Source: PVC group bacterium
GTDB taxonomy: Bacteria > Auribacterota > Erginobacteria > Erginobacterales > Erginobacteraceae
Direction of reading: 5' to 3'
Assembly: GCA_043804695.1 (NCBI GenBank)
Contig: JAZDIV010000032.1
Location: 1-20,478, forward strand
Length of the DNA: 20,478 nt
Shown here: positions 2,448 to 20,301 of the stretch, in pieces
How positions within the stretch are numbered: position 1 is the first letter of the stretch
Layout of the letters: every line of letters starts with the position of its first letter
Program-made: the position numbers and the translations under genes
The notes under the pieces: model-generated
What the model was told of the DNA's origin: nothing
What the model saw: the letters and a program-made list of their open reading frames with translations, nothing else
Database searches by the model: none

Positions 2448-2462
2448 AAAACCTCCTCCTCA

Positions 2463-2493
2463 TAAATTAGCTCGCTTCACTCGCGCAACTAAA
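2463..2493 (-). repeat. start-anchored hairpin module S (copy 1)
   Basis: Minus AGTTGCGCGAGTGAAGCGAGCTAATTT(ATG), abutting the metK SD. Confidence 0.75.
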
Positions 2494-2500
2494 TAGAACT

Positions 2501-2527
2501 ACGAATTACGCGAATTACACGAATTTA
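2501..2527. repeat. 9-bp tandem repeat x3 (RCGAATTAC)
   Basis: ACGAATTAC GCGAATTAC ACGAATTTA read directly. Confidence 0.8.
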
Positions 2528-2567
2528 CTTTTAATAAGTCAGCTACATTAATTCAATGCTTGCACAC

Positions 2568-2619
2568 TCTTATTTTTCCGCGCCGCCCCGAAGTATTAAT
2601 CGGGGGAGGAAAAATAAGA
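2568..2619. repeat. palindromic module A (copy 1)
   Basis: TCTTATTTTTCC...GGAAAAATAAGA arms enclosing CCCCGA-N8-TCGGGG; closely similar to 5943-5994. Confidence 0.8.
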
Positions 2620-2644
2620 TAGTAAACCCGCCCGGATCTGGCAA
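2616..2644 (-). promoter_or_regulatory. putative sigma70 promoter for metK
   Basis: TTGCCA (2644-2639), 17-bp spacer, TATCTT (2621-2616). Confidence 0.5.
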
Positions 2645-2778
2645 GGAGAAAGTGCGCCCCCGCTGACCGGGAAATCAGCTGGGCCGATCGGGAAGAAAAA
2701 ACCGGGTGCGGTAGGCTGATCAACGGTGTCGCTATCCAGAACGTGTTGGACTTTAACTGACACCGCCCCGGGCCGGGA

Positions 2779-4548
2779 TCACCGTTTGTGCTCCTCGCGC
2801 TGGAAAAACATCGGAACCGCCCGGCCCAGGATTTTCTTCACCTCGTCCCTGATCTGATCCGCGGAATCATACTGGAGCACGGTCTGGGCCAGTTTCCTGG
2901 CCTCGGCCAGACGGAGCGAGGTGATGATTTTCTTCACCTCCGGGATCATGGCCGGGCTCACGCTGAACTCGTCCAGCCCCAGTCCCAGCAGGATGGGGAC
3001 GGAGAGGATATCACCGGCCATTTCTCCGCACATCCCGACCCAGATGTTGTTCCGGTGTCCGATGGTGATCGTCTGGTGGATCAGGTGGAGCACCGCCGGA
3101 TTGAGGGGATCGTAGAGATAGGCGATCTTTTCGTTCACCCGGTCGACCGCCAGCGTGTACTGGATGAGATCATTCGTGCCGATGCTGAAAAAATCGACCT
3201 GGCGGGCCAGGACCTCGGCCACCACCACCGCCGCCGGGATCTCGATCATGATCCCGACCTCCATCTCCGGAAAAAACGGAATCCCCTGCCGCTTCAGGCC
3301 GTTCTTGGTGTCCTCCCATATCTCCAGAACCCGTTTCAGCTCCGCGTAGCCCGATATCATCGGGAACATGACCTTGACGTTCTTCTGACAGCTGGCCCTC
3401 AGGATTGCCCGGAGCTGGGTTTTGAAGATATCCTGCCGCTCGAGGCAGAACCGGATCGCTCTCCAGCCCATGAAGGGGTTGATTTCCCGGGGGATCTCGA
3501 GAGCGGAATTGAACTTATCGCCCCCCAGGTCGAGGGTGCGGATGATCACCGAAGCCGGCTTCATCTTCGCCGCCACCGTGTTATAGGCCTGAAACTGCTC
3601 TTCTTCATCGGGGACATCAGCCCGATTCAGATAAAAATATTCCGTCCGGTAAAGCCCCACCCCCTGGCCGCCGTGGGCGATGACTGAGGGGAGATCTTCC
3701 GGCATCTCGATATTGGCGGCCAGAGTTATTCGGAAACCGTCGCGGGTTTCGGCCGGAACATCCTTCAGTTCCTTCAGCCGGGCGTCAAACCGGGCTAAAT
3801 CCGATTGTTCCCGCTTCACCCGGGCCAGAGTTGACCGGGAAGGGAACAAGATCACCCGGCCGTCGGTGCCGTCCACGACGACGGGATCACCGCTGCGCGC
3901 GGAGATCGAGATGTCGCCCAGGCCGACCACCGCCGGGATCTCGAGGGAGCGGGCCATGATCGCCGTGTGGGAGGTTTTTCCCCCGATGTCGGTGGCAAAA
4001 CCGATCACATTCTCCTTGTGCATCAAGGCGGTGTCCGACGGGGAAAGATCGTGGGCGATCACCACCACTTCCTCGGCCAGCGAGGCCAGATCGGCCCGTT
4101 TCCGGCCGGTCAGGTTATGGAGCACCCGCCGGGCGACGTCCCGGATATCGCTCAGGCGCTCTTTGATATAATCATCCTTAACCTGGAGGAAGGCCCTGGT
4201 ATACTCGCCCATCACCTCCTGGAAGACATACCCGGCGTTGACCTTCTTTGCCTCGATCCCTTTGACCACTTCGGCGATCAGGGTACGGTCTTCCACCACC
4301 AGAAGGTGGGCTTCGAAGAGATCGGTCACCTCCCGGCCCGCCCGGTCGGCCAGATCCTGACGGATTCTGATCAGTTCTTTCCGGGTTTCGATCAGGGCGT
4401 CTTCAAAACGGGCGATCTCCGCCCCGACCTCTTTTTCGGGGATCTGATGGGGGACAACGGAGGTCTCTTCCAGGTCGAACAGATATATCTTCCCCACCAC
4501 AAAACCGGGAGAGGCGGCGATTCCCTCGAAGACCTTTTCCTTCATCAC
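2779..4548 (-). CDS. ptsI: PEP-protein phosphotransferase (PTS enzyme I)
   Basis: GGKTSHTAIMARS phospho-His motif, GLYRTE, RTLDLGGDK, NPFMGWRAIR, DFFSIGTNDLIQY, GMCGEMAG. Confidence 0.97.
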   Translation of the reverse strand: MMKEKVFEGIAASPGFVVGKIYLFDLEETSVVPHQIPEKEVGAEIARFEDALIETRKELIRIRQDLADRAGREVTDLFEAHLLVVEDRTLIAEVVKGIEAKKVNAGYVFQEVMGEYTRAFLQVKDDYIKERLSDIRDVARRVLHNLTGRKRADLASLAEEVVVIAHDLSPSDTALMHKENVIGFATDIGGKTSHTAIMARSLEIPAVVGLGDISISARSGDPVVVDGTDGRVILFPSRSTLARVKREQSDLARFDARLKELKDVPAETRDGFRITLAANIEMPEDLPSVIAHGGQGVGLYRTEYFYLNRADVPDEEEQFQAYNTVAAKMKPASVIIRTLDLGGDKFNSALEIPREINPFMGWRAIRFCLERQDIFKTQLRAILRASCQKNVKVMFPMISGYAELKRVLEIWEDTKNGLKRQGIPFFPEMEVGIMIEIPAAVVVAEVLARQVDFFSIGTNDLIQYTLAVDRVNEKIAYLYDPLNPAVLHLIHQTITIGHRNNIWVGMCGEMAGDILSVPILLGLGLDEFSVSPAMIPEVKKIITSLRLAEARKLAQTVLQYDSADQIRDEVKKILGRAVPMFFQREEHKR

Positions 4549-4817
4549 TCTTCCCCGAATTTCGCCTTGAACAGGGCCTCGATCTCGTTCATGGCCGTTT
4601 CCGCGTCCTCTCCCCGCGCGATCACCGTCACGGTCGCCCCCTGGGGAGCGGCCAGCATCAGCACCCCCATGATGCTTTTCCCGTTGACTTCCTCGGTCCC
4701 CCGCTTGAGGACGATCTCGGAGCTGAACCGGCTGGTCAGCTGGACGAAGCTGGCGGCTGGCCGGGCATGCATGCCGAGCTTGTTCTCAACCTGGATGGCC
4801 CTTATCACTTCCGGCAT
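4545..4817 (-). CDS. ptsH: phosphocarrier protein HPr
   Basis: GMHARPAA (His15) and NGKSIMGVL (Ser46); 90 aa; ATGA overlap with ptsI. Confidence 0.96.
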   Translation of the reverse strand: MPEVIRAIQVENKLGMHARPAASFVQLTSRFSSEIVLKRGTEEVNGKSIMGVLMLAAPQGATVTVIARGEDAETAMNEIEALFKAKFGEE

Positions 4818-4820
4818 AAT

Positions 4821-5771
4821 CTACTCTTTATTCGGCACCGAATGACCGATCCGCTCCTGGACGGTACGGTCCAGTTCCCGGGCCGCATGATACCCCATTC
4901 TCTTGATCCGGTGATTGAGGGCGGCGACTTCAATCAGGAGGGCCAGATCCCGTCCGGGACCGACCGGGAGAACGATGTGGGGAATCTCGACCCCGAGAAT
5001 GCTCAGGTACTCCTCATCCAATCCCAGCCGTTCATACTCCTTGTCCGGATCCCAGGACTCCAGGGTAACCGCCAGATCCAGCCGCTTGCGCTGCCGGACG
5101 CAGCCGACGCCGAAGAGGTTGCGAACATCGATGATCCCCAGCCCCCTGATCTCCATGTGGAACCGGGTCAGTTCCGAACCTTCCCCCAGCAAGTAGGTCC
5201 CATCCATCAAGCGGACGGAGATGTAGTCATCGCTGACCAGGCGGTGCCCCCGTTCCACCAGGCTCAGGGTGCACTCGCTCTTGCCGACGCCGCTCTTGCC
5301 CCTGATCAAAACCCCCACCCCATAAACCTCGACCAGGTTGGCGATGATGCTGGTGTGGGGAGCGAACATCTCCTCTAAAAATATCGTACAGAGATTGAGC
5401 AGCCGGGTCGTGATCAGGGGGGAACGAAAGACCGGTATCCCGACCCGATCGGCCTCGGAGAGGAGTTCCGGGGGGGGGACGTAATTTCGGGCGATGATGC
5501 AGAACGGGATCTTCTGTCCGAAAAAAAGGCTGAGGCGTTTTTTCCTTTCCGCGGACGGCAAGCCGCGAAGATAACTGATCTCGACCTTGCCCAGAACCTG
5601 GCCGCGCCGGGTGGCGAAGAACGCCAGGTAGCCGGCCAATACCAGGCCGGGGCGATTGATCTCGGAAATCAGGATTTTTCTCTTCAGCCCTTTCTCCCCG
5701 GCCACCAGCCTGAGTTCGAGTTTCTCTCTCAGGCTGTTGTAAAACTGCTTGACGGTGAGACCCTTCATCAT
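4821..5771 (-). CDS. hprK: HPr(Ser) kinase/phosphorylase
   Basis: INRPGL, GVGVLIRGKSGVGKSE Walker A, LVSDD, MEIRGLGIIDV, PVGPGRDLA. Confidence 0.96.
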   Translation of the reverse strand: MMKGLTVKQFYNSLREKLELRLVAGEKGLKRKILISEINRPGLVLAGYLAFFATRRGQVLGKVEISYLRGLPSAERKKRLSLFFGQKIPFCIIARNYVPPPELLSEADRVGIPVFRSPLITTRLLNLCTIFLEEMFAPHTSIIANLVEVYGVGVLIRGKSGVGKSECTLSLVERGHRLVSDDYISVRLMDGTYLLGEGSELTRFHMEIRGLGIIDVRNLFGVGCVRQRKRLDLAVTLESWDPDKEYERLGLDEEYLSILGVEIPHIVLPVGPGRDLALLIEVAALNHRIKRMGYHAARELDRTVQERIGHSVPNKE

Positions 5772-5801
5772 ATTAATTAGCGCCTCCGGCGCTACTTAAT
5801 A
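5771..5801 (-). repeat. start-anchored hairpin module S (copy 2)
   Basis: TATTAATTAGCGCC-tcc-GGCGCTACTTAATA, a 14-bp stem with one mismatch that overlaps the A of the hprK ATG. Confidence 0.8.
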
Positions 5802-5804
5802 GTG

Positions 5805-5829
5805 GATCCCGATTGTTCCAATCGGGATC
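5805..5829. repeat. 11-bp perfect hairpin
   Basis: GATCCCGATTG-ttc-CAATCGGGATC. Confidence 0.75.
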
Positions 5830-5880
5830 TGTTGGTTAAACTCAAATAATCAATAGGGGCAATTGCATAAAAAAGACTTT

Positions 5881-5938
5881 TATACATCAGTCGACATTTG
5901 CCTCCTGGGAGATATTTTTCCTGTCGACTTGATGTATA
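5881..5938. repeat. inverted repeat with a single bulged base
   Basis: TATACATCA-GTCGACA ... TGTCGAC-T-TGATGTATA. Confidence 0.7.
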
Positions 5939-5942
5939 CCAC

Positions 5943-5994
5943 TTTTATTTTTTCGCTCCGCCCCGAAGCATCAATCGGGGGAGAAAAAATAAAA
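5943..5994. repeat. palindromic module A (copy 2), abutting the hpf stop
   Basis: TTTTATTTTTTC...GAAAAAATAAAA arms with inner CCCCGA-N8-TCGGGG. Confidence 0.8.
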
Positions 5995-6510
5995 TTACTC
6001 TATCTCCAGCAGTCCCAGGGCGCCGTCGTCCCGGCGGAAGATAATGCTCAATGTGCCGCCGTCGGCGTTCCGGAAGACCAGAAAGCTCCGGTTGCCTTCC
6101 CGGAGCCGGAGAGAAGCCTCCCGCTCGCCGAGACTTTCAATAACCGGCCCGGGCTCTTTGATCAGGCGGGGGATGTCTTCCGGCCGGTCGTCAACAAAAT
6201 ACGGCGCCCGGATTTTATTTTTCCAACGCCGGGATGATTTATCCTTGATTTTCTTCAGTTTTTTTTCGAACTTCCCGGCCGCCTGGTTCACGGCCGTCTG
6301 CAGGCTGCGGCTGCGGGACCGGCAGTTGATCCGGTGGTGGCCGGACTGGAGATTGATCTCCAGCAGATATCCCGCTTTTTCGGCTTCAATGATCAGGTGG
6401 ACGGTGGCGGCGGGGCTCCACAGCGGCTCCAGGCTCTCAAGTTTCTCGCGGGCGTGATCCTTGATCTCTTCCGTGATCGAAGCGTGCCGCGCGGTGATGG
6501 TAATCGGCAT
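5995..6510 (-). CDS. hpf: ribosome hibernation promoting factor, long form (RaiA/sigma54 modulation family)
   Basis: ITITARHASITEEIKDHAREKL N-terminus and C-terminal FLVFRNADGGTLSIIFRRDDGALGLLE domain; SD AAGGAGG; follows lptB. Confidence 0.9.
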   Translation of the reverse strand: MPITITARHASITEEIKDHAREKLESLEPLWSPAATVHLIIEAEKAGYLLEINLQSGHHRINCRSRSRSLQTAVNQAAGKFEKKLKKIKDKSSRRWKNKIRAPYFVDDRPEDIPRLIKEPGPVIESLGEREASLRLREGNRSFLVFRNADGGTLSIIFRRDDGALGLLEIE

Positions 6511-6524
6511 GGATGATCCTCCTT

Positions 6525-6570
6525 TAATTTTATTTTCCTCTCCTCTCCGGAGGAGAGGAAAATAAAATTA
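6525..6570. repeat. palindromic module A (copy 3), perfect 21-bp stem containing the lptB stop
   Basis: TAATTTTATTTTCCTCTCCTC-tccg-GAGGAGAGGAAAATAAAATTA. Confidence 0.9.
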
Positions 6571-7290
6571 CATTGTAAACTGTTCCCCGAGATAAATCTC
6601 CCGGGCCTGGGGGCTGTTGATCAGTTCCTCGGATGTGCCGGAGATTAAAATCCGGCTCTGGAACATGATGTACGATCGGTCGGTGACCGCAAGCGTTTCC
6701 CTCACGTTATGATCGGTCAAAAGGATGCCCAGGCCGCGGTTCTTCAGGTCGATGATGATCTGCTGCACGTCAAAGACGGCGATGGGATCCACCCCGGAGA
6801 AAGGCTCGTCGAGCAGAATAAACCGGGGGGAGGTCACCAGCGCCCGGGCAATCTCCAGGCGCCTTCTCTCCCCCCCCGAAAGCATGTACGCCTTGCTCCG
6901 GGCGAGGTGATTGATCCCCAGCTCCTGGAGCAGGTCCGTCATTTTCTGCTTGCGGGCGGCCGATCTCATCTTCAGCGTCTGCAGGATGGCCATGATATTG
7001 TCTTCCACGGTCAGGTTTCTGAAAACCGACGGTTCCTGGGACAGATAGCTCATGCCCAGCCGCGCCCGGCGGGACATGGGGAGGTGGGTGATATCCTTCT
7101 GCTGGAAAAAAACCCTCCCCCCGGTGGCCTTGATCAGGCCGACGATCATGTAAAAACTGGTGGTCTTGCCGGCGCCGTTCGGTCCCAGCAACCCGACAAT
7201 CTCCCCCCGGTTGACGTGGAGGCTGACCCGGTCGACCACCCGGCGCTTTTTATACACCTTGACTAAATTTTCCGCCCGGAATAACTCCAT
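6568..7290 (-). CDS. lptB: LPS export ABC transporter ATP-binding protein
   Basis: GPNGAGKTT, LSGGERRRLEIARAL, LLDEPFSGVDP, ILLTDHNVRETL, YLGEQF. Confidence 0.97.
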   Translation of the reverse strand: MELFRAENLVKVYKKRRVVDRVSLHVNRGEIVGLLGPNGAGKTTSFYMIVGLIKATGGRVFFQQKDITHLPMSRRARLGMSYLSQEPSVFRNLTVEDNIMAILQTLKMRSAARKQKMTDLLQELGINHLARSKAYMLSGGERRRLEIARALVTSPRFILLDEPFSGVDPIAVFDVQQIIIDLKNRGLGILLTDHNVRETLAVTDRSYIMFQSRILISGTSEELINSPQAREIYLGEQFTM

Positions 7291-7292
7291 TA

Positions 7293-7315
7293 TATTTTTT
7301 GCTCCGCAAAAAATA
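7293..7315 (-). repeat. 10-bp hairpin with GGA loop, ending 2 nt before the lptB ATG
   Basis: Minus TATTTTTTGC-GGA-GCAAAAAATA-TA-ATG. Confidence 0.75.
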
Positions 7316-7318
7316 GTT

Positions 7319-7369
7319 TAACCTGGGTTATTCATGAAAGGTATTAATTTTCATGAATAACCCAGGTTA
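7319..7369. repeat. palindromic module B (copy 1)
   Basis: TAACCTGGGTTATTCATGAAA-N9-TTTCATGAATAACCCAGGTTA, perfect 21-bp stem. Confidence 0.9.
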
Positions 7370-7576
7370 CTGATTTTCGTTCAATGCATTATGAATAGCG
7401 ATCTTGCTTATGCGGCGGCGACACTCTGCTTTTTATTTTCCGGAAGGACAACGTTTTATCTTTCTATTAACATTGCCTATGGAAATAGATCATTGATTAT
7501 AATCTATTGCCAAAGAAGACGATTGAATCAATATGTTTTCGTGTCACTGTTTTTTTGTCTCTGTCATTGTTCACAG

Positions 7577-7629
7577 CTAATCCGATTTTTGCCTGCCTGC
7601 TGTGGGCAGGCAGGCAAAAATCGGATTAG
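7577..7629. repeat. perfect 24-bp palindrome containing the lptA stop
   Basis: CTAATCCGATTTTTGCCTGCCTGC-tgtgg-GCAGGCAGGCAAAAATCGGATTAG. Confidence 0.9.
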
Positions 7630-9165: not shown

Positions 9166-9213
9166 AATTGAGCCGTCGCGCAGTCTACCCCGGTTTACCG
9201 GGGCTCAGGCAAC
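9165..9213 (-). repeat. expanded module S variant at the kdsC start
   Basis: Minus GTTGC-CTGAGCCCCGGTAAACCGGGGTAGACTGCGCGACG-GCTCAATT-ATG; similar termini to other S copies with a larger branched interior. Confidence 0.55.
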
Positions 9214-9227
9214 GTTCGGGTAAAAAG

Positions 9228-9330
9228 GTTGCGGTTGCGCGGCTGGAATCGGTTGCGTGGAACGGTTGCGGGTGCGAGCCGCACGTAACCGTACACCGTT
9301 CAACGTTTCGAGCTGCGTAACCGATCAACG
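9228..9330. repeat. degenerate short-repeat inverted repeat (GGTTGC / GTAACC units)
   Basis: Four GGTTGCG units followed by complementary CGTAACCG and CGTTCAACG units around GTGCG-agc-CGCAC. Confidence 0.6.
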
Positions 9331-9402
9331 ATCCCCGGCATTTCCCTTTATTGAAATTTCGATACAGGCACGGTAGTGCCTCCGGCGAAAATTCCAGACC
9401 TG

Positions 9403-10392: not shown

Positions 10393-11221
10393 TCTCTTTC
10401 ACCGCCCGGTCGATTTTCCTGATCATCCTCAGCAGGCCCGGCAGGTCGCCCAGGGGCAGGACGCTGCCGGCATCCGACCGGGCGCTCTCCGGCCGGTCAT
10501 GGACCTCCACGAAAATCCCCTCACAGCCGGCGGCCGCCGCCGCCCGGGCCAGATGCGGGATAAACCCCCGCTCGCCGCCGGTGGAACCGTCCCCACCGCC
10601 CGGAACCTGGACGCTGTGGGTGGCGTCGAATATCACCGGATAGCCGAACCCCCGGATGATCGGGAGGGCCCTCATGTCGTTAATCAGGTTATGATAGCCG
10701 AAACTGACGCCCCGTTCGGTGATGAGCAGGCGGCGGTTCCCGCCCGAGGTGACCTTGTCGATGATATGCCGCACATCTCCCGGGGCCAGAAACTGGCCTT
10801 TCTTCACGTTGACGGCGCGGCCGGTCCCGGCCGCGGCCAGAAGCATGTCCGTCTGGCGGCAGAGAAAAGCCGGCACCTGGAGGACATCGGCCACCCGGGC
10901 CACTTCCCGGGCGTCCGTCTCCCGGTGGAAATCAACCAGAAGCGGAAGGCCCAGCTCCCGCTTCACCCGCTCCAGGATTTTCAGGCCGGAGAGGAGCCCC
11001 GGCCCCCGGTAGGAGGAGAGGGACGTCCGGTTGGCTTTATCATAGGACGCCTTGAAGACGAGCGGGACCCCCTCTCCCCGGCAGATGTCCTTTAAAGCGG
11101 CGGCGACGGCGAGCGTGTGGCTCTCGCTTTCGATGACGCAGAGCCCCGCGATCAGGATCAGCGGATGGCGGCCGCCGATCGGGATCGGACCGACCTGGAA
11201 CTCTCTCACTTGCTCAATCAT
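10385..11221 (-). CDS. kdsA: KDO 8-phosphate synthase (start revised to the ATG at 11221, MIEQVREF...)
   Basis: CVIES, KASYDKANRTS, PAFLCRQTD, NVKKGQF, FDATHSVQ. The ORF track's upstream start lies inside a repeat hairpin. Confidence 0.96.
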   Translation of the reverse strand: MIEQVREFQVGPIPIGGRHPLILIAGLCVIESESHTLAVAAALKDICRGEGVPLVFKASYDKANRTSLSSYRGPGLLSGLKILERVKRELGLPLLVDFHRETDAREVARVADVLQVPAFLCRQTDMLLAAAGTGRAVNVKKGQFLAPGDVRHIIDKVTSGGNRRLLITERGVSFGYHNLINDMRALPIIRGFGYPVIFDATHSVQVPGGGDGSTGGERGFIPHLARAAAAAGCEGIFVEVHDRPESARSDAGSVLPLGDLPGLLRMIRKIDRAVKENE

Positions 11222-11224
11222 ATA

Positions 11225-11370
11225 TAAATTAGCTCGCTGCGCTCGCAACTTTTGCCACTAAGACACCAAGACACCAAGAAAAAACAAATAAGGTGAGTAT
11301 TTTACTCTTTTCTCTCTTTTCTTGGTGTCTTTGTGCCTTGGTGGCTAATAATTATTGAAATTCCGAAGCA
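11225..11370. repeat. composite repeat C (copy 1): module S plus CACCAAGA inverted repeat and tail
   Basis: TAAATTAGCTCGCTGCGCTCGCAACT then GCCACTAAGACACCAAGACACCAAG...CTTGGTGTCTTTGTGCCTTGGTGGC-TAATAAT; colinear with 15371-15507. Confidence 0.9.
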
Positions 11371-11372
11371 GT

Positions 11373-11395
11373 AAGTTAGCGCCTCCGGCGCAACT
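11373..11395 (-). repeat. module S, internal copy
   Basis: Minus AGTTGCGCC-GGA-GGCGCTAACTT. Confidence 0.75.
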
Positions 11396-11396
11396 G

Positions 11397-11510
11397 GGTG
11401 ACGGTTACGGTAACGAGGCCCGTTTCGTCTGGCGGTTAAGGTCACGTGGGCCAGGCCCCGCCGTCACCGTTACCCTGACCGATTCTGGCTTCGTTACCCT
11501 AACCGTTACC
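11397..11510. repeat. hexamer-based inverted repeat
   Basis: GGTGACGGTTACGGTAACGA pairs with TCGTTACCCTAACCGTTACC (2 differences in 20); further CCGTCA/CCGTTA units lie inside. Confidence 0.75.
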
Positions 11511-11545
11511 TTTTTTTGTCCCGATTCATTTATTCAAAAGTATTG

Positions 11546-12346
11546 TTATCGGGATTCCAATACCGGAATTGAGCGCCGCCGGCGCGATATTTCAGGGGCC
11601 TCCGATCTGATCCGCTCCCGAGCACGGGCCAGATCATCCGGCGTGTCGATCCCGATCGTGTCCCGGTCCGTCTCCAGCACTTTGATTTTATATCCATTCT
11701 CCAGGACCCGCAGTTGTTCCAGCCGCTCCTCCTGCTCGAGCGGCCCCGGGGGGAGCTCCACCAGCCGGGTCAGAAAATCTCTCCGGTAGCCGTAGAGACC
11801 GATGTGCTTGTACGCGGCCGGCAACCGGTCCGGGCCGGAAAAAGGGATCGGCGAACGGGAAAAGTACAAGGCATATCCATCCCGATCGGTCACCACTTTC
11901 ACCAGATGGGGGTTCTTCAGATCTTCCGCCTTTTCTATCTTTTTTTTCAGGGTGACGACAACCAGCTCCGGGGCCCGGATCAGCTCGGCAACCGCCAGAT
12001 CAATCATGTCACCGTGAAGAAAGGGCTCGTCCCCCTGGATATTGACCACGATCTCCATCTCCCGGCCCCGGCAGGCTTCCGCCACCCGTTCCGTTCCCGT
12101 GGCCGGCCGGGAAGTGGTCAGAACCGCCTTCCCCCCGAACCGCTCCACGGCCCGGAAGATGCGTTCGTCATCGGTGGCGACGAAGAGATCGTCCAGTCCG
12201 GACGCTTCCGAGGCCCGGCAAAAAACATGCTCGATCACGGTCCGCTGACCAAGCCGGGCCAGGACTTTTCCCGGGAACCGGCTCGACCCGAAACGGGCCG
12301 GGATGACGCCGACCGCCCGGGGGCGGGGATCACCTTTTTCAGACAT
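11546..12346 (-). CDS. kdsB: CMP-KDO synthetase
   Basis: IPARFGSSRFPGKVL, VNIQGDEP, ALYFSRSPIP, KHIGLYGY, LEQLRVLENG, GIDTPDDL. Confidence 0.97.
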   Translation of the reverse strand: MSEKGDPRPRAVGVIPARFGSSRFPGKVLARLGQRTVIEHVFCRASEASGLDDLFVATDDERIFRAVERFGGKAVLTTSRPATGTERVAEACRGREMEIVVNIQGDEPFLHGDMIDLAVAELIRAPELVVVTLKKKIEKAEDLKNPHLVKVVTDRDGYALYFSRSPIPFSGPDRLPAAYKHIGLYGYRRDFLTRLVELPPGPLEQEERLEQLRVLENGYKIKVLETDRDTIGIDTPDDLARARERIRSEAPEISRRRRSIPVLESR

Positions 12347-12392
12347 ATAAAAACACCTTCAAAATAAGGATGAAGTATTCCGCTGATATTTA

Positions 12393-12457
12393 AAATCCCA
12401 AATAACAAATATCAAATAACAAACAAATCCCAATGACCAAAATCAAAAATTCCAAAC
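12393..12457. repeat. degenerate heptamer tandem repeat (AAATMHC)
   Basis: AAATCCC AAATAAC AAATATC AAATAAC AAAC AAATCCC AATGACC AAAATCA AAAATTCC AAAC. Confidence 0.8.
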
Positions 12458-12490
12458 CAGTTATTAGTCAGTCCATAATTGTATGGACAT

Positions 12491-12664
12491 GTCCATTGCG
12501 AGAAGCGAAGCGACGAAGCAATCCGATGCGAAGCATCGTCCTGAGTGAAACGAAGGATCTCTTTTGAATAAGCATCGATCCTTCACTGCGTTCAGGATGA
12601 CCCTTCGGGTCAGATTGCTTCCCGCCACGCTTTGCTCGCGGCTTCGGCTAACGCTCGCAATGAC
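12491..12664. repeat. nested REP-like palindromic element (resembles the CGTC family)
   Basis: Outer arms CATTGCGAG..GAAGCAATC / GATTGCTTC..CTCGCAATG; inner arms TCGTCCTGA..GAAGGATC / GATCCTTC..TCAGGATGA. Confidence 0.75.
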
Positions 12665-12757
12665 CGCAATCGTTGACGTAAATCCTACCACGGTCGGATT
12701 AATATGTTGAAGATAATGTCTTTAGTTAAGTGCCGGATAAATTCGAATAACCTCTGA

Positions 12758-14286: not shown

Positions 14287-14296
14287 AGGCTCTTCC

Positions 14297-14347
14297 TAAC
14301 CTGGATTATTCATGAAAATTAAATATTTTCATGAATAATCCAGGTTA
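14297..14347. repeat. palindromic module B (copy 2)
   Basis: TAACCTGGATTATTCATGAAAAT-taaat-ATTTTCATGAATAATCCAGGTTA, perfect 23-bp stem. Confidence 0.9.
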
Positions 14348-14387
14348 CTAATTGTCGTTCAATGTAGACAGGCAGGCATAACTCGGG

Positions 14388-15371
14388 TTAATTGCTCAAA
14401 TACCGACCCGGGATCAGGTATTCCGTAACATAATCAGCGACCGCCTCCGGCAGGGGCGTGACGACCTTCTCGTAGCCGGCCCGGCGCAATTTTTCCATCT
14501 CGGCCCGGGTATGATACTGGTAGGTCTCCCTGATCTCTTCCGGGATGGGGACATACTGGATCTGCCGTCTTATCTGCATAACATTAAAAAGAGCAGCCGC
14601 CAACTCATTCCAGGTCCGGCCGGTTCCGGAACCGATGTTGAACAACCCGTGCAATTCAGGCTGACCATAGAGAAAAACAACCATCTCCACCGCGTCCTTG
14701 ACATAGATAAAATCGCGCTCCTGTTCCCCGTCCAGGTACCCTTCCCGGTAGGAGTGAAAGAGATTGATCTTGCCCTTGGCCCGGATCTGCTCGTATCCCT
14801 TGCAGACCATACTCCGCATCGATCCTTTATGATACTCATTGGGCCCGAAAACATTAAAGAACTTGAGGCCGGTGATCCGGTCCAGCCAGCCTTCGCGCCG
14901 GGCGTGAAGATCAAAGAGATGCTTGAAAAACCCGTACCCGTTCAGAGGCCGGAGGCCGCCGATCGCCGACTCGTCATCTATGTACCCGCCGCTCCCGTCT
15001 CCATAGGTGGCCGCGCTGGAGGCGTACATGAACCGGACGCCGGCCCGGAGAGCGTGCGCGGCCAGGGATTTGCTGTACTCATAATTGTTTTTCATCAAGT
15101 AGCGCATATCCGCCTCGGTGGTGGATGAACAGGCGCCGAAATGAAAGATCATCTCCACCGAATCAGGAAGTTTTTCAGCGGTCACCAGCTGGAGAAAATC
15201 ATCCTTCTCCAGGTAATCAGCGAAACGCAGGCCCGCCAGGTTCCTCCACTTGTCACCGCTGTCCAGAGAATCGACGATGAGAATATCGTCCTCTCCCATC
15301 TGGTTCAATTTCCAGACCAGAGCGCTCCCGATGAAGCCGGCTCCGCCGGTAACCACTATTTTTTCACTCAT
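14388..15371 (-). CDS. hldD: ADP-L-glycero-D-manno-heptose 6-epimerase
   Basis: VTGGAGFIGS, GACSSTTE, YASSAATYG, YxxxK (YGFFK), FFNVFGPNEYHKG, RDFIYVKD. Confidence 0.96.
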   Translation of the reverse strand: MSEKIVVTGGAGFIGSALVWKLNQMGEDDILIVDSLDSGDKWRNLAGLRFADYLEKDDFLQLVTAEKLPDSVEMIFHFGACSSTTEADMRYLMKNNYEYSKSLAAHALRAGVRFMYASSAATYGDGSGGYIDDESAIGGLRPLNGYGFFKHLFDLHARREGWLDRITGLKFFNVFGPNEYHKGSMRSMVCKGYEQIRAKGKINLFHSYREGYLDGEQERDFIYVKDAVEMVVFLYGQPELHGLFNIGSGTGRTWNELAAALFNVMQIRRQIQYVPIPEEIRETYQYHTRAEMEKLRRAGYEKVVTPLPEAVADYVTEYLIPGRYLSN

Positions 15372-15507
15372 AAATTAGCTCGCTGCGCTGGCAACTTATG
15401 CCACTAAGGCACCAAGACACCAAGGGAAAACCAAATAAGATGAGTTTTTTTCTCTTTTCTTGGTGCCTTTGTGACTTGGTGGCTAATAATCACTTGAATT
15501 TTCAGCA
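15371..15507. repeat. composite repeat C (copy 2)
   Basis: TAAATTAGCTCGCTGCGCTGGCAACT then GCCACTAAGGCACCAAGACACCAAG...CTTGGTGCCTTTGTGACTTGGTGGC-TAATAAT. Confidence 0.9.
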
Positions 15508-15557
15508 TGATAATAAGTGAATCTCACTCGGCGCTGATACGACTAAAAATAAGGGCT

Positions 15558-15589
15558 ATTATATTACCCGAGCCCCGGTTCTTTTACAA
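15558..15589 (-). promoter_or_regulatory. putative sigma70 promoter upstream of hldD
   Basis: TTGTAA (15589-15584), 17-bp spacer, TAATAT (15566-15561), with an overlapping TATAAT (15563-15558). Confidence 0.5.
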
Positions 15590-15608
15590 GCCGTAAAAAG
15601 ACCCGATT

Positions 15609-16922
15609 TCAGCGCTCCGAGGATGACGGGGATGCCCGGCGCCCGACGATCAGGGCGAGAAAGAGCCAGAAGATGAGCATCACCCGGAAAGAGAAGAACG
15701 GATTATCGGCCAGCCCCCCGATTAAAAAGCCCGCCAGGCCGGCCGTCATTCCCCGTTGAACGGCCTGTTCGAACGGATCTTCCCGGGTCCGTTCGCCGGA
15801 CAGGAGAAGATAGAAGGCGGCGGCCAGCAGCCACAGGAAAGCCGACGCCCCCGCCAGACCGGCGGCGGCCCCCAGGGAGAGGTACATGTTATGCGCGTGG
15901 ATCGGCTGCTCATCCGTCTCCACCGTCTGAAAGTCCTTTTCATACGATGCCATGAAGACCCGGTAACCGGGGCCATACCCCAGAACCGGACGGAGGGCGA
16001 TCATCCGCCGGACCCCGTCCCAGTAGATGAGCCTCTTTTCGATGTTGGGATCGGTTGTGAAGGCCGTGAAACTTTTCAGCCGTTCTTTAAAGTAGGACTG
16101 GGGACCGACATTCACCCCCAGAATAAGAAGCGACGCCAGTAAAACCAGCGCCGCCAGGTAATAGAAGCGGCCCCGCCGGTACAGGGCCAGAACAGCCAGC
16201 GCGATCAGGAGACTGATCCAGGCCGTCCGGGAGAAGGTCAGGATCATCGCAGCGGACAGCAGGAGGGCGGCCAGGCCGCTGGCCGCTCTCAGCCGGGCCG
16301 GCACCCGGGCGGTCGCCAGGGAAACAGCCGGCGGGATCAGGAGCAGCAGCGCCGATCCGGAGGAGTTGGGATGCATGAAGGAGAGCCAGATCCTCCGGGG
16401 CGTCTCCGGGAAGTAAACACCGCGGCTGAAGAGATAGAGCCCGGCCAGGGCGCTCAACCCGGCACCGATCACGAGGACGACGAGGGCCGCCCGCCGGTTT
16501 CGCCCGCTGGACAGGGACACCGAGGCGGCCAGGCAAAAGCCTCCTCCCAGCAGCAGTTCCCGCAGCCCCTCCGCCCAGCTCAGTTCCCTCAGCGGCGAAA
16601 AAACATACGCCATCACCGCCACCGAGAGGAAGACCAGGAGCGGAAGCGTCAGGGCGGTCCGCGGCGGACGCAGCGTCCGGTCCCAGATACAGCCGGCCGC
16701 CCAGAGAACCAGGAGCGGATAGATCAGGTTCCTGATCTTCCCACCGACGCTGAAACGCAGCCAGTTCAGGGAGGGGAAGGACCGGCGGAAGACCGGCTGC
16801 TCGAGAGAATCCGCGGTCCCGTCCGCCTTGTTCAGAGAGACCTGTCCCACTCCGATGAAGAAGATAACGATCAAAAGGAGGCCCCACAAAACCAGGCGAT
16901 ATTTCCCGCGGAAATTGTTCAT
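15609..16922 (-). CDS. O-antigen ligase (Wzy_C/WaaL)-family membrane protein
   Basis: Multiple hydrophobic helices, HPNSSG, LTFSRTAW, RLIYW...PVLGYGPG, HAHNMYL. Confidence 0.88.
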   Translation of the reverse strand: MNNFRGKYRLVLWGLLLIVIFFIGVGQVSLNKADGTADSLEQPVFRRSFPSLNWLRFSVGGKIRNLIYPLLVLWAAGCIWDRTLRPPRTALTLPLLVFLSVAVMAYVFSPLRELSWAEGLRELLLGGGFCLAASVSLSSGRNRRAALVVLVIGAGLSALAGLYLFSRGVYFPETPRRIWLSFMHPNSSGSALLLLIPPAVSLATARVPARLRAASGLAALLLSAAMILTFSRTAWISLLIALAVLALYRRGRFYYLAALVLLASLLILGVNVGPQSYFKERLKSFTAFTTDPNIEKRLIYWDGVRRMIALRPVLGYGPGYRVFMASYEKDFQTVETDEQPIHAHNMYLSLGAAAGLAGASAFLWLLAAAFYLLLSGERTREDPFEQAVQRGMTAGLAGFLIGGLADNPFFSFRVMLIFWLFLALIVGRRASPSSSER

Positions 16923-18043
16923 AACTTAAATTGCGCCATCTCCCGCTTCAGTTCCCCGGCGAACCGGCCGATGGCGAATCTTTCCTCGACCGCCTGCCTT
17001 CCCCGGCAAGCCATCTCCCGGGCTTCGGCCGGCCGGGTGATCATCCGGCGCGCGGCGGCGGCGAGCGCTTCCGGATCCCGGGGGGGGATCAGAAGCCCGG
17101 TCGAGCCGTCGGTCAGAATCTCCTCCACGCCTCCCGACCGGCTGGCCACCACCGGGACCTCCCGGGCCAGGGCTTCGACAACCACCCTTCCGAAAGACTC
17201 CCCCCAGGACGGATGAATCAAAAGATCGAGCTCTCTCAGGCACCGGGGGAGGTCAATCCTCTCCCCCCTGAAAACGACCCGTTCGCCGATGCCCAGTTCC
17301 CGGCAGAGAGTTTCCATCCGATTCCTGAAATCACGGTACCGGCCGGGGGTCCGTCCGATAATCATCAATCTGGCCGAGGGGCAATCACGCAGGAGGAGCC
17401 CGAAACCCCGGATCAGGGACTCATGCCCCTTCTGGGGGCAGATATCGCCGACACTCCCCAGGAGCGGGCCGCCCCCCTCCCCCGGTCTTCCCCCGCCCCC
17501 GGCCCTTTCTTCATCCGGAGGAGGAAGGGGGACGCCCGGGTAGATGACCCGGGATTTTTCCTCGATCCCCTCCCCCAGGATCGGGGCCAACTCCAGAGCC
17601 GACCGGGAATTGAAAATCACCCGGTCGGCCAAACGGGCGGCTTCCTTCATCTCTTCCAACTCCCGCCGCCCGCAGTAGGAGGTCAGAAGCTCATGCAGCA
17701 TCCAGATCACCGGGACCTCCACGTCGGCGGCGGCCTGAACGGCCCGGAAGGACTCCAGACTGTTGGCCACCACCAGGTCCGCCTCTTTCTCCGCGAAGAT
17801 CGCCCGGAGCCGTTTCCGGATCCGGGGCCGGGTGACGAGAATCTCACGACCTGTGAAAGAACGGGCATAAAAAAATACCTCGGCGCCGGCCAGGGGGTGC
17901 CTTTGCAGAAGCATCCCGGCGGCGGGCAGACCCAGAGAAATGCTCCCCGGCTCTATATCTTTCAACAGCTCCTCAACCAGTTCGGCCAGGGTGATCGGCG
18001 CCCCGTTCAGCACCGAGGCGTGGGAGATGAAGACGATCTTCAT
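16919..18043 (-). CDS. glycosyltransferase family 4
   Basis: GT-B motifs VGDICPQKG, HPSWGESFGRVVVEALA, VVASRSGGVEE. Confidence 0.92.
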   Translation of the reverse strand: MKIVFISHASVLNGAPITLAELVEELLKDIEPGSISLGLPAAGMLLQRHPLAGAEVFFYARSFTGREILVTRPRIRKRLRAIFAEKEADLVVANSLESFRAVQAAADVEVPVIWMLHELLTSYCGRRELEEMKEAARLADRVIFNSRSALELAPILGEGIEEKSRVIYPGVPLPPPDEERAGGGGRPGEGGGPLLGSVGDICPQKGHESLIRGFGLLLRDCPSARLMIIGRTPGRYRDFRNRMETLCRELGIGERVVFRGERIDLPRCLRELDLLIHPSWGESFGRVVVEALAREVPVVASRSGGVEEILTDGSTGLLIPPRDPEALAAAARRMITRPAEAREMACRGRQAVEERFAIGRFAGELKREMAQFKL

Positions 18044-18060
18044 ATAAGTTAGTTTTTCTC

Positions 18061-18088
18061 TTATTTTTCCGGAGTAAAAATAAAATTA
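18061..18088. repeat. short module A (copy 4) starting at the GT2 stop
   Basis: Minus TAA-TTTTATTTTT-ACTCCGG-AAAAATAA. Confidence 0.6.
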
Positions 18089-19078
18089 GAGGAGCAGAAA
18101 ATCGAATAAATACCCCGTCAGGAAACGCCATTTGACCTGCAGACGGGTGCGCTTCCGCTCCCTCTCACCGGGGGCACGGTGGGCCGGGTACGCCCAGAGG
18201 AGCGAGACCGTGCCGCGGATGATCGACCAGTAGAGGCCGGCCAGAAAGAGGGGCTTGAAAATCAGCTTGAACCGTGCCGCGGCCGCGGCGCCGTCCTGCT
18301 TGCCGAAGTATCTGAACTGGCTCTGAAAAAACCAGTAGAGGGCGCGGGCCCCCGCCTGCCCGGTGCTCCCGCCTCCCGCGTGAACGACGACCGCCCGGGG
18401 GTTATACCACAACCGGCGGCCGGAGCGGTCGAGCCTCCGGCAAAGATCAACTTCTTCAAAATAAAGGAAAAACTCTTCATCCAGCAGACCGACCTCCTCC
18501 AGCGCCTCCCGCCGCAGGAAGAGCGCCGCGCCCATCGGCTGTTCCACCGTCGATGCCCGGTCGGAGGGAAAATTCGGTTCCAGATACTCACGCCGGGCGC
18601 GGCGGAAGAGACCGATATCTCCCAGGATCGTGAACTGCTGCAGGCTGCTGCGAAACGTCGGAAAACCTCGCACCGAGGGCTGATGCCTGCCGTCCGGGTA
18701 GATCAGCCGGGGACCGCCGCCGCCCGCGGCGGGGCGCTCGTCCAAAAAACGGACCATCTCTTCCAGAGCGCCTTTTCGAATCAGGGTATCGGGGTTGAGC
18801 AACAGCAGGTAGCGGCCGCGGCTGCGCCGGATTGCCTGGTTGCAGGCGGCGGCGAAGCCGAGATTGACCCGGTTCCGGACCAGGGCGGCCTCCGGGAATT
18901 CGGCTGCCACCCTGTCCCCGCTTCCGTCCCGGGAAGCGTTATCGACCACCACAATCTCATATTTCAGAGCCGGCCGCGACGACCGGATGGAAGCCAGGCA
19001 GTCCCCGAGCAGATCCTTCACGTTCCAGCTGACAATACAGATCGACAGATCGATATCTTGTGCGCTCTGCTTTTTCAT
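18086..19078 (-). CDS. glycosyltransferase family 2 (WbbL-like)
   Basis: SICIVSWN, VVVDNASRDGS, NLGFAAACN, LLLNPD, LDEEFFLYFEEVDLC. Confidence 0.93.
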   Translation of the reverse strand: MKKQSAQDIDLSICIVSWNVKDLLGDCLASIRSSRPALKYEIVVVDNASRDGSGDRVAAEFPEAALVRNRVNLGFAAACNQAIRRSRGRYLLLLNPDTLIRKGALEEMVRFLDERPAAGGGGPRLIYPDGRHQPSVRGFPTFRSSLQQFTILGDIGLFRRARREYLEPNFPSDRASTVEQPMGAALFLRREALEEVGLLDEEFFLYFEEVDLCRRLDRSGRRLWYNPRAVVVHAGGGSTGQAGARALYWFFQSQFRYFGKQDGAAAAARFKLIFKPLFLAGLYWSIIRGTVSLLWAYPAHRAPGERERKRTRLQVKWRFLTGYLFDFLLL

Positions 19079-19107
19079 CTATCTCCAATTCACCAACTAT
19101 GATCATC

Positions 19108-20259
19108 TTATAGCCCCGGGTTACCGGAGAGGGTAATAAAAATCTTCTCCTGAACCGGCAGCCCTCCCCGGGCCAGAACATTGCCCCGGTCATCTACCAC
19201 CCGGTACTCCGTCATCCCGTAAGGGAACTTGCGCACCTCCACCCCGAATTCCGTCAACGGGAAAGGAGACCGGTTCTCCATGACGATCAGGAAAACCGGG
19301 CCGTCGCGGCGGGTCTCCACCCGCAGTTTTTCGCGGGCCTGCCACCAGCGGCTGAGTTCAGTGAGCGTGCAGCACCAGGTGTTTTCTTTCAATATCCTGT
19401 CCATGAACGCATCCAGCATCTGCAGCCGCTCGGGCTGGGCGATACTCCCGATAAACGTATGATAGACGAACACGCCGTTTCTATCCGTGACCCGCTTGAA
19501 AAGAGACCAGGCCTTGGCATACTGCTTGGTAGGATCGATATAGTCGGTAAATTCCAGCAGGCCGAAGCCGGAGGGATGATAGGGATAGAGCAGTCCCTGG
19601 GAAAGGGACGGCCTCAGAAGCGTGTTGAACGTTCGGGGGGGGACTATCGAGCTTGAATCATAGAGAAAGTCAAGCGTCTCCAGGACCCGGAAGGTCTCCT
19701 CGTTGGTGCTGAACGAGGGCGCCCGGAAGCCGGCCGGCGGAAAACCCAGTTCGGTCAGGAGCTCCTTCCCTTTCACGATCCGCTCCATCTGCTCGTCGAA
19801 CGAAAGGGTGATCAACTCCTGGCCGGGCTCCGCCCCCCGTGCCATGTCCGGCCCATAGGTGTGGTAGGTCCCGGCCTGGGCGATCTCATGACCGTCGTTC
19901 ACCAGCTTTTGCAGCTCGGCCACCACCTGCGGGCTTTTATTCAACGGATGGGACTTGATGTAATCGGGGATGACGAAAAAGACGCCCTTGATGTCTTTCT
20001 TCTTCAGAAAGAGGCGAAGGATATCGATGTCCTCGGGGGTGCTTGACCCCTCGATGGAATCGTTGGTAAAGACCGTGGCCGACCCGTATCCCCGGGGGTA
20101 GATGTCAATCTCAACGTAGCGGTTCTTCATGAAGAGAAGCTGGGGACCGTACATGTAGTCCTTGGTGATAAAAAAGGTGTTGATCAGAACATAGATAAAA
20201 ATCGCCGCGATGATCACGGCCGCCGCCATCAGTATTTTTTTACCCGGAATGTATTCCAT
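19108..20259 (-). CDS. membrane-anchored polysaccharide deacetylase-like protein (NodB/DUF2334-like fold)
   Basis: N-terminal TM helix, GVFFVIP, GHEIAQ, GFRAPSF, FLYDSS; SD AAGGGGAG. Confidence 0.78.
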   Translation of the reverse strand: MEYIPGKKILMAAAVIIAAIFIYVLINTFFITKDYMYGPQLLFMKNRYVEIDIYPRGYGSATVFTNDSIEGSSTPEDIDILRLFLKKKDIKGVFFVIPDYIKSHPLNKSPQVVAELQKLVNDGHEIAQAGTYHTYGPDMARGAEPGQELITLSFDEQMERIVKGKELLTELGFPPAGFRAPSFSTNEETFRVLETLDFLYDSSSIVPPRTFNTLLRPSLSQGLLYPYHPSGFGLLEFTDYIDPTKQYAKAWSLFKRVTDRNGVFVYHTFIGSIAQPERLQMLDAFMDRILKENTWCCTLTELSRWWQAREKLRVETRRDGPVFLIVMENRSPFPLTEFGVEVRKFPYGMTEYRVVDDRGNVLARGGLPVQEKIFITLSGNPGL

Positions 20260-20274
20260 GCAGGCTCCCCTTTA

Positions 20275-20301
20275 TAAATTAGCGCCTCCGGCGCTAATTT
20301 A
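20275..20301 (-). repeat. module S, perfect 12-bp hairpin
   Basis: TAAATTAGCGCC-tcc-GGCGCTAATTTA, immediately upstream of the SD of the deacetylase-like gene. Confidence 0.85.

Follow-up and report, generated by a model that had tools for sequence, protein, structure and literature searches.

Introduction

BOX elements of Streptococcus pneumoniae are intergenic units built of boxA, n copies of boxB and boxC, often near the starts of genes, and we know of no transposase that moves them. Here we analyse repeats of a comparable build in contig C32 (JAZDIV010000032.1) of assembly GCA_043804695.1 from a PVC group bacterium, taken whole (20,478 bp) and referred to below as the window. In it, genes of a housekeeping row are separated by modular, gene-less repeats, of which the most characteristic is a polar cassette that consists of a 5′ module X, a family-specific core and a 3′ hairpin S and that typically ends at or close to the start of the next gene.

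Modular intergenic repeats of other kinds are well described. Repetitive extragenic palindromic (REP) sequences, with their REPIN and bacterial interspersed mosaic element (BIME) arrangements, go together with REP-associated tyrosine transposases (RAYTs) of the Y1/HUH type (accessible portions of PMC3733652, PMC3333891, PMC2817692 and PMC3116915), and their hairpins carry a conserved GTAG or CGTC tag at one end (same portion of PMC3733652). The accessible part of PMC3184786 describes both Neisseria REP2, ~26 copies of which lie just upstream of genes and carry a promoter and a ribosome-binding site as well as an ATG, and the mycobacterial interspersed repetitive units (MIRUs), 40–100-bp units within operons whose ends overlap neighbouring stop and start codons and which contain small reading frames. 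In Geobacter metallireducens, paired arrays of facing 7–9-nt units, divided into classes 1–3, are read as binding sites of unknown global regulators (PMC2700814, in the portion available).

No published description of the repeats analysed here was found, literature searches returning known repeat families only, and the words 'repeat', 'intergenic', 'transposase' and 'coding density' are absent from the main text (supplements aside) of the Auribacterota genome paper PMC9324843. The original prediction, made from the letters of the window, had proposed an undescribed insertion system. The sequences and their start-abutting, head-to-tail grammar do appear to be new, but the kind, modular intergenic repeats such as BIME, BOX, REP2 and MIRU, is known.

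Results

Repeat content of the spacers

The window belongs to an assembly (G000) of 2.97 Mb in 155 contigs, 88% complete, and was compared mainly with genomes from the same genus (G001), the same family (G004–G007) and the same order (G011). Six of its gene junctions overlap by 4–8 nt (GT4/waaL, rfaE/gmhB, kdsA/kdsD, kdsC/lptC, lptC/lptA and ptsH/ptsI), and the remaining 12 are spacers of 29–411 bp with a GC content of 0.21–0.57 (0.578 for the genome). When 15 spacers and ends were compared with the whole assembly by blastn, 10 of the 12 junction spacers proved to consist largely of segments with 10–100 other copies, in agreement with the proposed division into overlapping and repeat-filled junctions; the spacer at 6511–6567 had one other copy in the assembly, and those at 19079–19107 and 12692–12757 had none. 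Across the genome, with genes called by a home-made open reading frame (ORF) scorer (2,228 genes, coding density 78%), 38% of the 650,855 non-coding bases match elsewhere and 25% do so with at least five partners. Bases with at least five partners amount to 161,856, or 5.4% of the assembly, and the matched subject bases are 96% non-coding. Called genes contain only four of the 974 copies of all 22 modules, so that the repeats stay outside coding sequence nearly as strictly as had been claimed, save that one of them covers the last three codons of kdsB and its TAA. Nor does any insert carry a gene, again as claimed: 'orf75' in the 411-bp spacer lies inside a repeat, matches no family and is spurious. 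Repeats of this sort break assemblies and create such spurious ORFs.

The spacers are probably a layered deposit of several non-autonomous repeat families over a few conserved promoter- or terminator-like elements, resembling REP, BIME and BOX repeats. They do not draw on one small kit, as the original prediction had it, but are heterogeneous and fall into four classes, namely polar cassettes, a ~310-bp composite, inverted repeats of a GIY-YIG type and non-mobile conserved elements; one module family descends from repeats that surround a GIY-YIG gene, and the REP of a RAYT-like gene makes up one cassette core. Three spacers are in part not inserts but conserved DNA of promoter-like or terminator-like character. 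A scan of the window for sigma-70-type promoters gave 12 sites (5.9 expected), none consistently within a module, and a simple terminator scan of the whole window gave 29 sites (21.3 expected) and flagged no T or A module.

Plan and folding of the polar cassettes

The cassette plan was derived from lists of all copies of X and of S2, one of two S subtypes, together with one aligned cassette family. X reads (GC)TAAnTTnC and then TGYTTCGGAATTTCAAWAA. In the columns upstream of 195 X copies the consensus bases are T (147), A (149), A (143), any base, T (161), T (150), any base and C (165), and this consensus holds with or without a preceding S hairpin; in several cases the TAA before X is the stop codon of the upstream gene. 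The cores are of several types, each of which folds: facing arrays of 7–9-nt units, an X–X′ palindrome with a 'tail' of ~150 nt, a CCCGA hairpin, and a REP. The T hairpin, whose stem is AT-rich, also occurs as a cassette core within leaders. In S, a GC stem with a G-N-A loop is enclosed by AT-rich outer arms that read AAnTWGC and GCTAAnTT; the subtype S1 has tandem G·A pairs in addition. We regard X–core–S as the unit because the subtype of S follows the core on its 5′ side and that of X the core on its 3′ side.

Cassettes stack head to tail, each S within a stack running into the next X. A stack starts with a TAA, which often doubles as the stop of the upstream gene, and its last cassette ends either 0–4 nt before an ATG, as S followed by AT and ATG, or before a Shine–Dalgarno (SD) run. 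In the window, the unit between waaL and hldD ends in module C plus S1, as does the two-unit stack between kdsB and kdsA. Like BOX elements, these cassettes are modular and non-coding, and they vary in the middle while the end modules stay fixed, but their sequences are unrelated to BOX, their cores are many and mutually unrelated, they are stacked serially, and their 3′ end abuts a start codon. Module C and the arrays of GGTAACG, GGTTGCG and TTTGG type share the architecture of the Geobacter arrays, as far as the available portion of PMC2700814 describes them, and are likewise intergenic and found also within operons; they differ in unit sequence, and most are embedded as cores between X and S. 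No small reading frames are evident in the cassettes, unlike in MIRUs as the accessible part of their source presents them.

S copies were counted by blastn, a generic regular expression having counted palindromes twice. S2 folds strongly as DNA or RNA (z -4.7 and -5.2 as DNA), and, read in the gene sense, its loop is G-N-A in 108 of 110 copies; the fold should therefore be favoured on the mRNA-sense strand. An S1-type pattern has 152 matches and one in a reversed control. Its inner two pairs are Watson–Crick in 140 of the 152, with covarying variants, tandem G·A pairs occur in 95, and the commonest loops are GCA (58) and GAA (43); the evidence for a putative S1 hairpin is this covariation together with the tandem G·A pairs. 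G-N-A triloops closed by C–G, and tandem G·A pairs, are unusually stable.

S2 resembles a REP in being a palindrome of ~29–33 nt with a GC stem, present in 110 copies, none of them in called genes, and set in a mosaic with other motifs. Directly before its stem stands the REP tag GTAG in 39 of the 110 copies, TTAG in 45 and GTTG in 18. It departs from a REP in that S is single, not an inverted doublet, and has AT-rich outer arms.

Placement and polarity

The orientation of S follows that of the gene downstream. This gene is on the same strand as S2 in 89 of 110 copies and on the opposite strand in 19, with 66 sense and 12 antisense copies in co-directional contexts; for the 73 copies of S1 the corresponding counts are 61 and 9, and 43 and 7. 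Module C (26 versus 3) and the GGTAACG arrays (25 versus 6) are similarly polar. The fixed polarity that had been proposed for the whole set is thus seen in S, X, C and the unit arrays, whereas the composite of B and H1 modules and the GIY-YIG-type element do not show it. REPs, in contrast to S2 with its 89 of 110 copies upstream of a co-oriented gene and only four of 110 with a convergent partner, are found for the most part downstream of genes or between convergent ones. In 44 of 52 cases S is oriented like the downstream gene, and in 29 of 52 it accords with a weak GC-skew proxy for replication direction.

Placement was assessed by counting copies within 15 nt of a start or stop codon against random placement in the same spacers, and a fraction of at most 0.001 of the simulations reached the observed values. 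Called starts have 50 of 83 S2 copies (5.4 expected) and 36 of 52 S1 copies (5.1 expected) within 15 nt, figures that carry gene-call error because the genes were called with the home-made ORF scorer; within 15 nt of a stop lie 5 of 7 H1 (0.8 expected), 17 of 36 T (6.1 expected) and 5 of 9 A hairpins (0.8 expected). These modules are thus clearly non-random in their placement relative to gene boundaries. The notion of dedicated hairpins at both gene boundaries survives in that S hugs starts, and H1, T and A hug stops, genome-wide, but several of the TAA-anchored hairpins are conserved terminator-like structures. Offsets from S2 to the start codon are bimodal, with 40 of 110 copies at 0–4 nt, two at 5–9 nt and 17 at 10–25 nt, 15 of the latter with an SD-like motif in between; for S1 the offset is 0–4 nt in 29 of 73. 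An SD-like motif was found for 1,144 of 2,217 called genes. The position immediately upstream of genes recalls Neisseria REP2 as given in the accessible part of PMC3184786, from which S modules differ in that the ATG is the gene's own, at a variable offset of 0–4 nt.

Such placement is also what one would see if the modules were primarily host regulatory signals in RNA or DNA (leaders, processing or stabilising hairpins, or sites for a global factor) whose spread is a by-product of recombination and selection and not of selfish mobility. Orientation that follows the gene and a fixed distance of S from start codons or SD runs favour this explanation, as do the reading of the facing Geobacter arrays as regulator binding sites (PMC2700814, portion available) and the promoter, ribosome-binding site and ATG supplied by REP2 (PMC3184786, likewise in part). 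Against it, the genes served are functionally unrelated, identity between copies within the genome reaches 99% in some cases, and the cores are interchangeable, even including the REPs of a RAYT-like gene. We consider it unlikely, also in view of the turnover described below. In the layered deposit that we favour, the S hairpin of a cassette and its A/U-rich tail may be retained as a workable, insulated translation start in a setting where only about half of the genes have an SD motif.

Turnover and conservation between relatives

Relatives show the same junctions empty, filled or differently filled, as expected of insertion at gene boundaries. The positive spacers, summed over the printed junctions, come to 2,330 bp in the window and 733 bp in G004, and matching junctions measure 2–34 bp in G004 versus 100–411 bp in G000 or G001. 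Between lptA and lptB there are 335 bp in the window and 30 bp in G001, the extra 307 bp lying exactly between the stop codon and a conserved hairpin. At GT2→GT4, G001 has an X–core–S2 unit between matching CTAAATTT and GCTAACTT, with CTAAnTT on both sides of the added block, and the junction in the window is empty. On contig C48 of the window's assembly, the junction g6→g7 has in G001 one X–core–S2 cassette followed by ATG, and in G000 the same cassette and, following its GCTAACTTG, two further ones that end in GCTAATTTA; at g8→g9 the two genomes hold different cassettes, both ending in S2 directly followed by ATG. From these alignments, the GCTAAnTT tail of S, beside the start codon, appears to be the point at which new cassettes are added.

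In the mechanism that we propose, new units would enter at a TAAnTT tail, provided either by S or by a TAA stop with T-rich sequence, and would stack between the stop and the next start, ending in a hairpin favoured on the mRNA strand. Homology-driven spread, by gene conversion between loci that share S and X, might be the main route, although we think this rather less than likely.

An alternative, in line with the original prediction, is a dedicated site-specific system, in which a recombinase inserts circular or single-stranded X–core–S units at the S hairpin and its GCTAAnTT tail. Cassettes with defined ends, one orientation and head-to-tail stacking would suit it, as would GCTAAnTT on both sides of added blocks, the strand asymmetry of the hairpin (G-N-A loops, G·A pairs and, in variants of the form AAGTTGC...GCTAACTT, an unpaired T) and a cross-species conservation such as is expected for sites read by a conserved protein. 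We nevertheless judge it improbable, in part because the exact S|X junction pattern has no match in viral contigs and in part for the enzymes discussed in the next section. Equally improbable in our estimation is the related proposal that X–core–S units are cargo-less cassettes of an orientation-controlled insertion system whose enzyme is unassembled or of an unrecognised family. Its attachment site would be either S, comprising the hairpin and the GCTAAnTT tail, or a TAA stop with T-rich sequence after it; by landing each time between a stop and the following start, the system would rewrite the leaders of housekeeping genes, and the host would tolerate S or exploit it as an SD-free start. Integron cassettes offer a parallel, being likewise added in one orientation at a fixed boundary and having a folded, strand-specific hairpin to mark the end of the unit. 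The units described here differ in being gene-less and in lying between syntenic housekeeping genes genome-wide, not by an attI, and the neighbouring integrase gene intI is an internally deleted remnant; the distinction from attC arrays that had been suggested is therefore upheld.

X and S belong to part of the family only. Counted on both strands, X and S2 have 166 and 236 matches in G000, 152 and 191 in G001, 158 and 243 in G003, and 37 and 29 in G004, and both have 0–3 matches, which is background, in each of the five genomes from genus g2, which belongs to the same family. A species collection has the S|X junction pattern at 84 loci or more, in three assemblies and a 1.5-kb contig binned as Bacteroidales; one record bearing it is Candidatus Euphemobacter frigidus (phylum Candidatus Auribacterota). 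That genus g2 does without X and S, and that matching junctions hold different cassettes or none in close relatives, argues further against host regulatory signals as the origin of the modules.

Misjoining of repeats in a metagenome-assembled genome would be a trivial explanation for such patterns, and the fragmentation into 155 contigs, many of which end in repeats (for example at 20478, the end of the window), might suggest it. It is hardly credible, given that the modules stand in matching order at orthologous junctions of independently assembled relatives and occur in three other assemblies of the species collection. One DNA sequencing run (0.06 share of words) yielded scattered pieces of the window only and nothing on its junctions; three joints from this run all fall within coding sequence and probably derive from other organisms.

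Where an insert is shared, it is strongly conserved. The one between hpf and hprK, absent in G004, G005 and G006, has orthologous copies in G000 and G001 that agree at 208 of 229 ungapped columns (91%) and at 60 of 60 in the last 60 nt; the corresponding identity is 82% for coding DNA and 64% for third positions in nine ungapped genes of the row. G000 repeats and dispersed G001 copies are 90–98% identical, a range biased upward because it comes from best hits among many copies. Conservation of orthologous inserts far above that of synonymous sites is a further point in favour of regulatory signals. On the face of these alignments the repeats would be unlike neutral junk, and either read by something conserved or recently exchanged.

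Search for a mobilising enzyme

Three matches to tyrosine recombinases are present in G000: two full-length single copies, whose size alone suggests that they are Xer-like, and the remnant of intI. The latter scores 183 bits (cut-off 265), retains profile positions 2–110 and the C-terminal end, and lacks the middle third; it is also found beside metK in G001 (62% over residues 9–104) and must therefore be old. G000 has no match to PF07282 (TnpB-type) or DDE_3 (PF13358), and its single reverse transcriptase (RT) match, single IS110-type match and six DDE_Tnp_1 matches are without window modules at their ends. All this speaks against a dedicated recombinase. The lack of window modules at the DDE, IS110-type and RT loci also sets the ~310-bp composite apart from miniature inverted-repeat transposable elements, as do the unrelated ends of the composite.

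Six matches to Y1 (HUH, PF01797) remain, and three of these genes are bracketed by repeats of their own, from families other than those of the window. One encodes a 163-aa RAYT-like protein with a GC-rich REP (17–35 copies) on its flanks, and this REP, not present in the window, is the core of X...S units elsewhere in the genome. Two others, of ~320–335 aa, have a C-terminal extension, and one of them has 33-bp direct repeats on both sides. The Y1 gene at C114:32620–33819, which has the C-terminal extension, is conserved and single-copy, and its orthologues in G001, G004, G005 and G006 have a lineage-specific palindrome on both sides, a pattern that fits a vertically inherited RAYT-like gene co-evolving with its repeats. 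Inactivation of the G005 and G006 orthologues was considered and rejected, the single TAA noted in each being the natural stop codon, and there is no co-distribution. The genome is thus like REP/RAYT systems in having RAYT-like genes with their own REPs, one of which serves as a cassette core, and unlike them in that S and X are absent from the flanks of its Y1 genes; a search for S, X, B and C at the flanks of the six G000 genes found none.

In G011, contig C121 has a gene for a 151-aa Y1 transposase-like protein that lies between two tandem arrays, each of five 80-bp units (880–1260 and 2020–2440 of the excerpt), in which an S2 core is nested in a CCCAGGG...CCCTGGG stem. The link that this makes between a Y1 enzyme and S2 is only suggestive, since the X/S-rich genomes have no intact counterpart and the repeats in G001 are without the core.

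A Y1/HUH enzyme that reads the hairpins and moves the units in trans may nevertheless be tentatively put forward; we take this to be the likeliest enzyme class because three Y1 genes here have hairpin repeats of their own. The original prediction of hairpin-reading single-stranded DNA transposition gains no support from these results, none of the six Y1 genes being flanked by the modules or co-distributed with them, and its statement that no mobilising enzyme can be identified is borne out by the searches of recombinase, HUH and transposase matches in G000.

Several observations weigh against our account as a whole. Among the mobilising-enzyme matches in G000 none is tied to X or S: 2-kb flanks of 17 candidate genes gave 12 short blastn hits to the window and no bracketing pair, and no Y1 protein among the six has its orthologues restricted to X/S-rich genomes. 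The Y1 gene of G011 is without an intact counterpart in G000, G001, G003 and G004, and also in G013, and the repeats around its broken copy in G001 have the outer stem and not the S2 core. The mover could be unassembled, because the assembly is 88% complete and in 155 contigs. Nearest-neighbour energies predict no fold for S1 (z 0.5 and 1.4). The GC-skew proxy agrees with 54% of genes only and is too weak to argue against a targeting of the lagging strand. The high identity between species could come from recent transfer rather than constraint, and the boundaries of inserts are defined to within a few bases, since the closest relative is ~82% identical in coding DNA. A mover, transcription of the cassettes and a role in translation are each something that we infer.

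If our account is correct, a lineage within an uncultured phylum of the PVC group has allowed ~5% of its genome to be taken up by directional repeat cassettes, which replace the short coupled junctions of core operons and place a standard hairpin with an A/U tail at more than 100 start codons. It would then offer a natural test bed for SD-free translation starts and show how operons survive being pulled apart, and would raise the question of what holds non-coding repeats at 91–100% identity between species in which synonymous sites are close to saturation.

Features along the window

Gene names are from matches to Pfam and NCBIfam profiles. The row runs on the minus strand from 20259 to 1257 and comprises genes for a DUF2334/deacetylase-like protein, the glycosyltransferases GT2 and GT4, and Wzy_C (O-antigen-ligase/waaL-like), followed by hldD, rfaE, gmhB, kdsB, kdsA, kdsD, kdsC, lptC-like, lptA, lptB, hpf, hprK, ptsH, ptsI and metK; its functions are those of the cell envelope and of sugar signalling, and its order is kept in six relatives (G001, G004–G007 and G011). 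A plus-strand ORF at 1248–2465 was rejected, as the minus-strand frame is metK (555 bits, 90% identical in G001). At gathering scores Rfam found no family in the window, and ARAGORN no tRNA gene. The features below are on the minus strand, except the intI remnant, and are given in the order of the gene row.

At the contig end, which cuts it, 20302–20478 contains a 'tail' cassette core and the inner half of an X–X′ palindrome; 15 aligned copies of the 'tail' family (over 400 nt) have a median pairwise identity of 0.89 and a maximum of 0.99. Next to it, the S2 hairpin at 20272–20303, with a stem of 11–12 bp and a GGA loop (-11.7 kcal/mol as DNA, z -5.2), ends 13 nt before the ATG of the DUF2334 gene (20259), just before the SD-like run AAAGGGGAG. 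The minimal GT2→GT4 junction (18044–18085) has an AT-rich T hairpin starting from the TAA stop and then CTAACTTAT abutting the ATG, and is an S tail without a cassette.

Between waaL and hldD, a promoter-like stretch (15512–15608) is not repeated, is common to G001 and G004 and is not an insert. It is followed by module C after a degenerate X (15398–15505), where two facing arrays of CACCAAG-type 8-nt units form a long hairpin, and by an S1 module (15372–15397) that directly abuts the hldD ATG (15371). A B palindrome with 23-bp arms and a conserved left flank (14297–14364) ends 10 nt before the rfaE ATG.

Upstream of kdsB lies a gene-less inverted-repeat element of GIY-YIG type (12461–12704), which holds 'orf75' and a 30-nt arm piece with 117 copies. 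A small GIY-YIG gene on contig C27 (25980–26195) has repeats of the left arm upstream and their inverse downstream, and the window element has both arms and no gene; in G011 an element of this type sits at lptA→lptB, a different junction of the same operon. Beside it in the window is a cassette (12347–12463; 13 copies) that has an X-like start and contains short-unit arrays of TTTGG type.

Two cassettes stand between kdsB and kdsA. The first (11373–11558) begins with a 5′ piece over the end of kdsB, continues with facing GGTAACG-type arrays and ends in an internal S2 (11373–11396) fused to the next X; the second (11254–11372) consists of this X (11352–11372) and module C (11254–11348). An S1 module (11222–11252) ends 4 nt before the kdsA ATG at 11221, a start from which relatives align from residue 1. 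The kdsD→kdsC spacer (9166–9402) has an X-like start, facing GGTTGCG-type arrays and a small CCCCGG hairpin.

Between lptA and lptB, a ~310-bp composite (7319–7628) comprises an H1 hairpin from the lptA TAA, a middle part and a B palindrome. Its two ends are unrelated hairpins; copies elsewhere have a common B end and varied left ends and show no polarity (B 12 versus 13, H1 6 versus 6), and at kdsB→kdsA in G001 the composite is reversed, its end forming the TAA. The small AT-rich hairpin that follows (7291–7318) abuts the lptB ATG and, being shared with G001, is older than the composite insert. The H1 hairpin (7578–7628), the GIY-YIG-type element (near 12704) and the X–X′ palindrome (20450–20478), modules that are otherwise unrelated, all have as their outer end the 8-mer TAATCCGA or the complement of it; judging from this recurrence, TAATCCGA could be a shared cleavage or recognition motif.

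A terminator-like palindrome (6511–6567) includes the lptB TAA and is followed by AAGGAGG and the hpf ATG; it is kept in G004, G005 and G006 and is not mobile. In all family genomes compared, lptB is directly followed by hpf; in many bacteria rpoN lies between the two. The hpf→hprK composite insert (5772–5994) consists of an A hairpin at the TAA, a middle part, a CCCGA hairpin (P) and an S2 that abuts the hprK ATG.

The promoter-like TTGCCA-17-TATCTT before metK (2616–2644) is kept in G001, G004 and G006 and is not a repeat. The metK leader cassette (2461–2620) has an A-type hairpin, a 29-nt piece (37 copies) and TAATTCG-type repeats, its 3′ part being an S1-like module, then AGGAGGAGG and the ATG (2447); the same cassette also occurs within a stack on contig C48. 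No S-adenosylmethionine riboswitch was found by Rfam in the metK leader (2448–2778). On the plus strand, the intI remnant (273–1178) is without the middle of its catalytic domain.

Elsewhere in the assembly, two long stretches of C48:34151–39924 are 88–93% identical to G001, G003 and G004, well above neighbouring genes; from this identity, and as no ORFs are called there, the region is probably an rRNA operon. In G011, facing arrays of GGTTCA-type units occur at nearly every junction of the operon analysed here, and they are also present in a 134-bp ptsH→ptsI spacer, at a junction that overlaps in every other genome compared.

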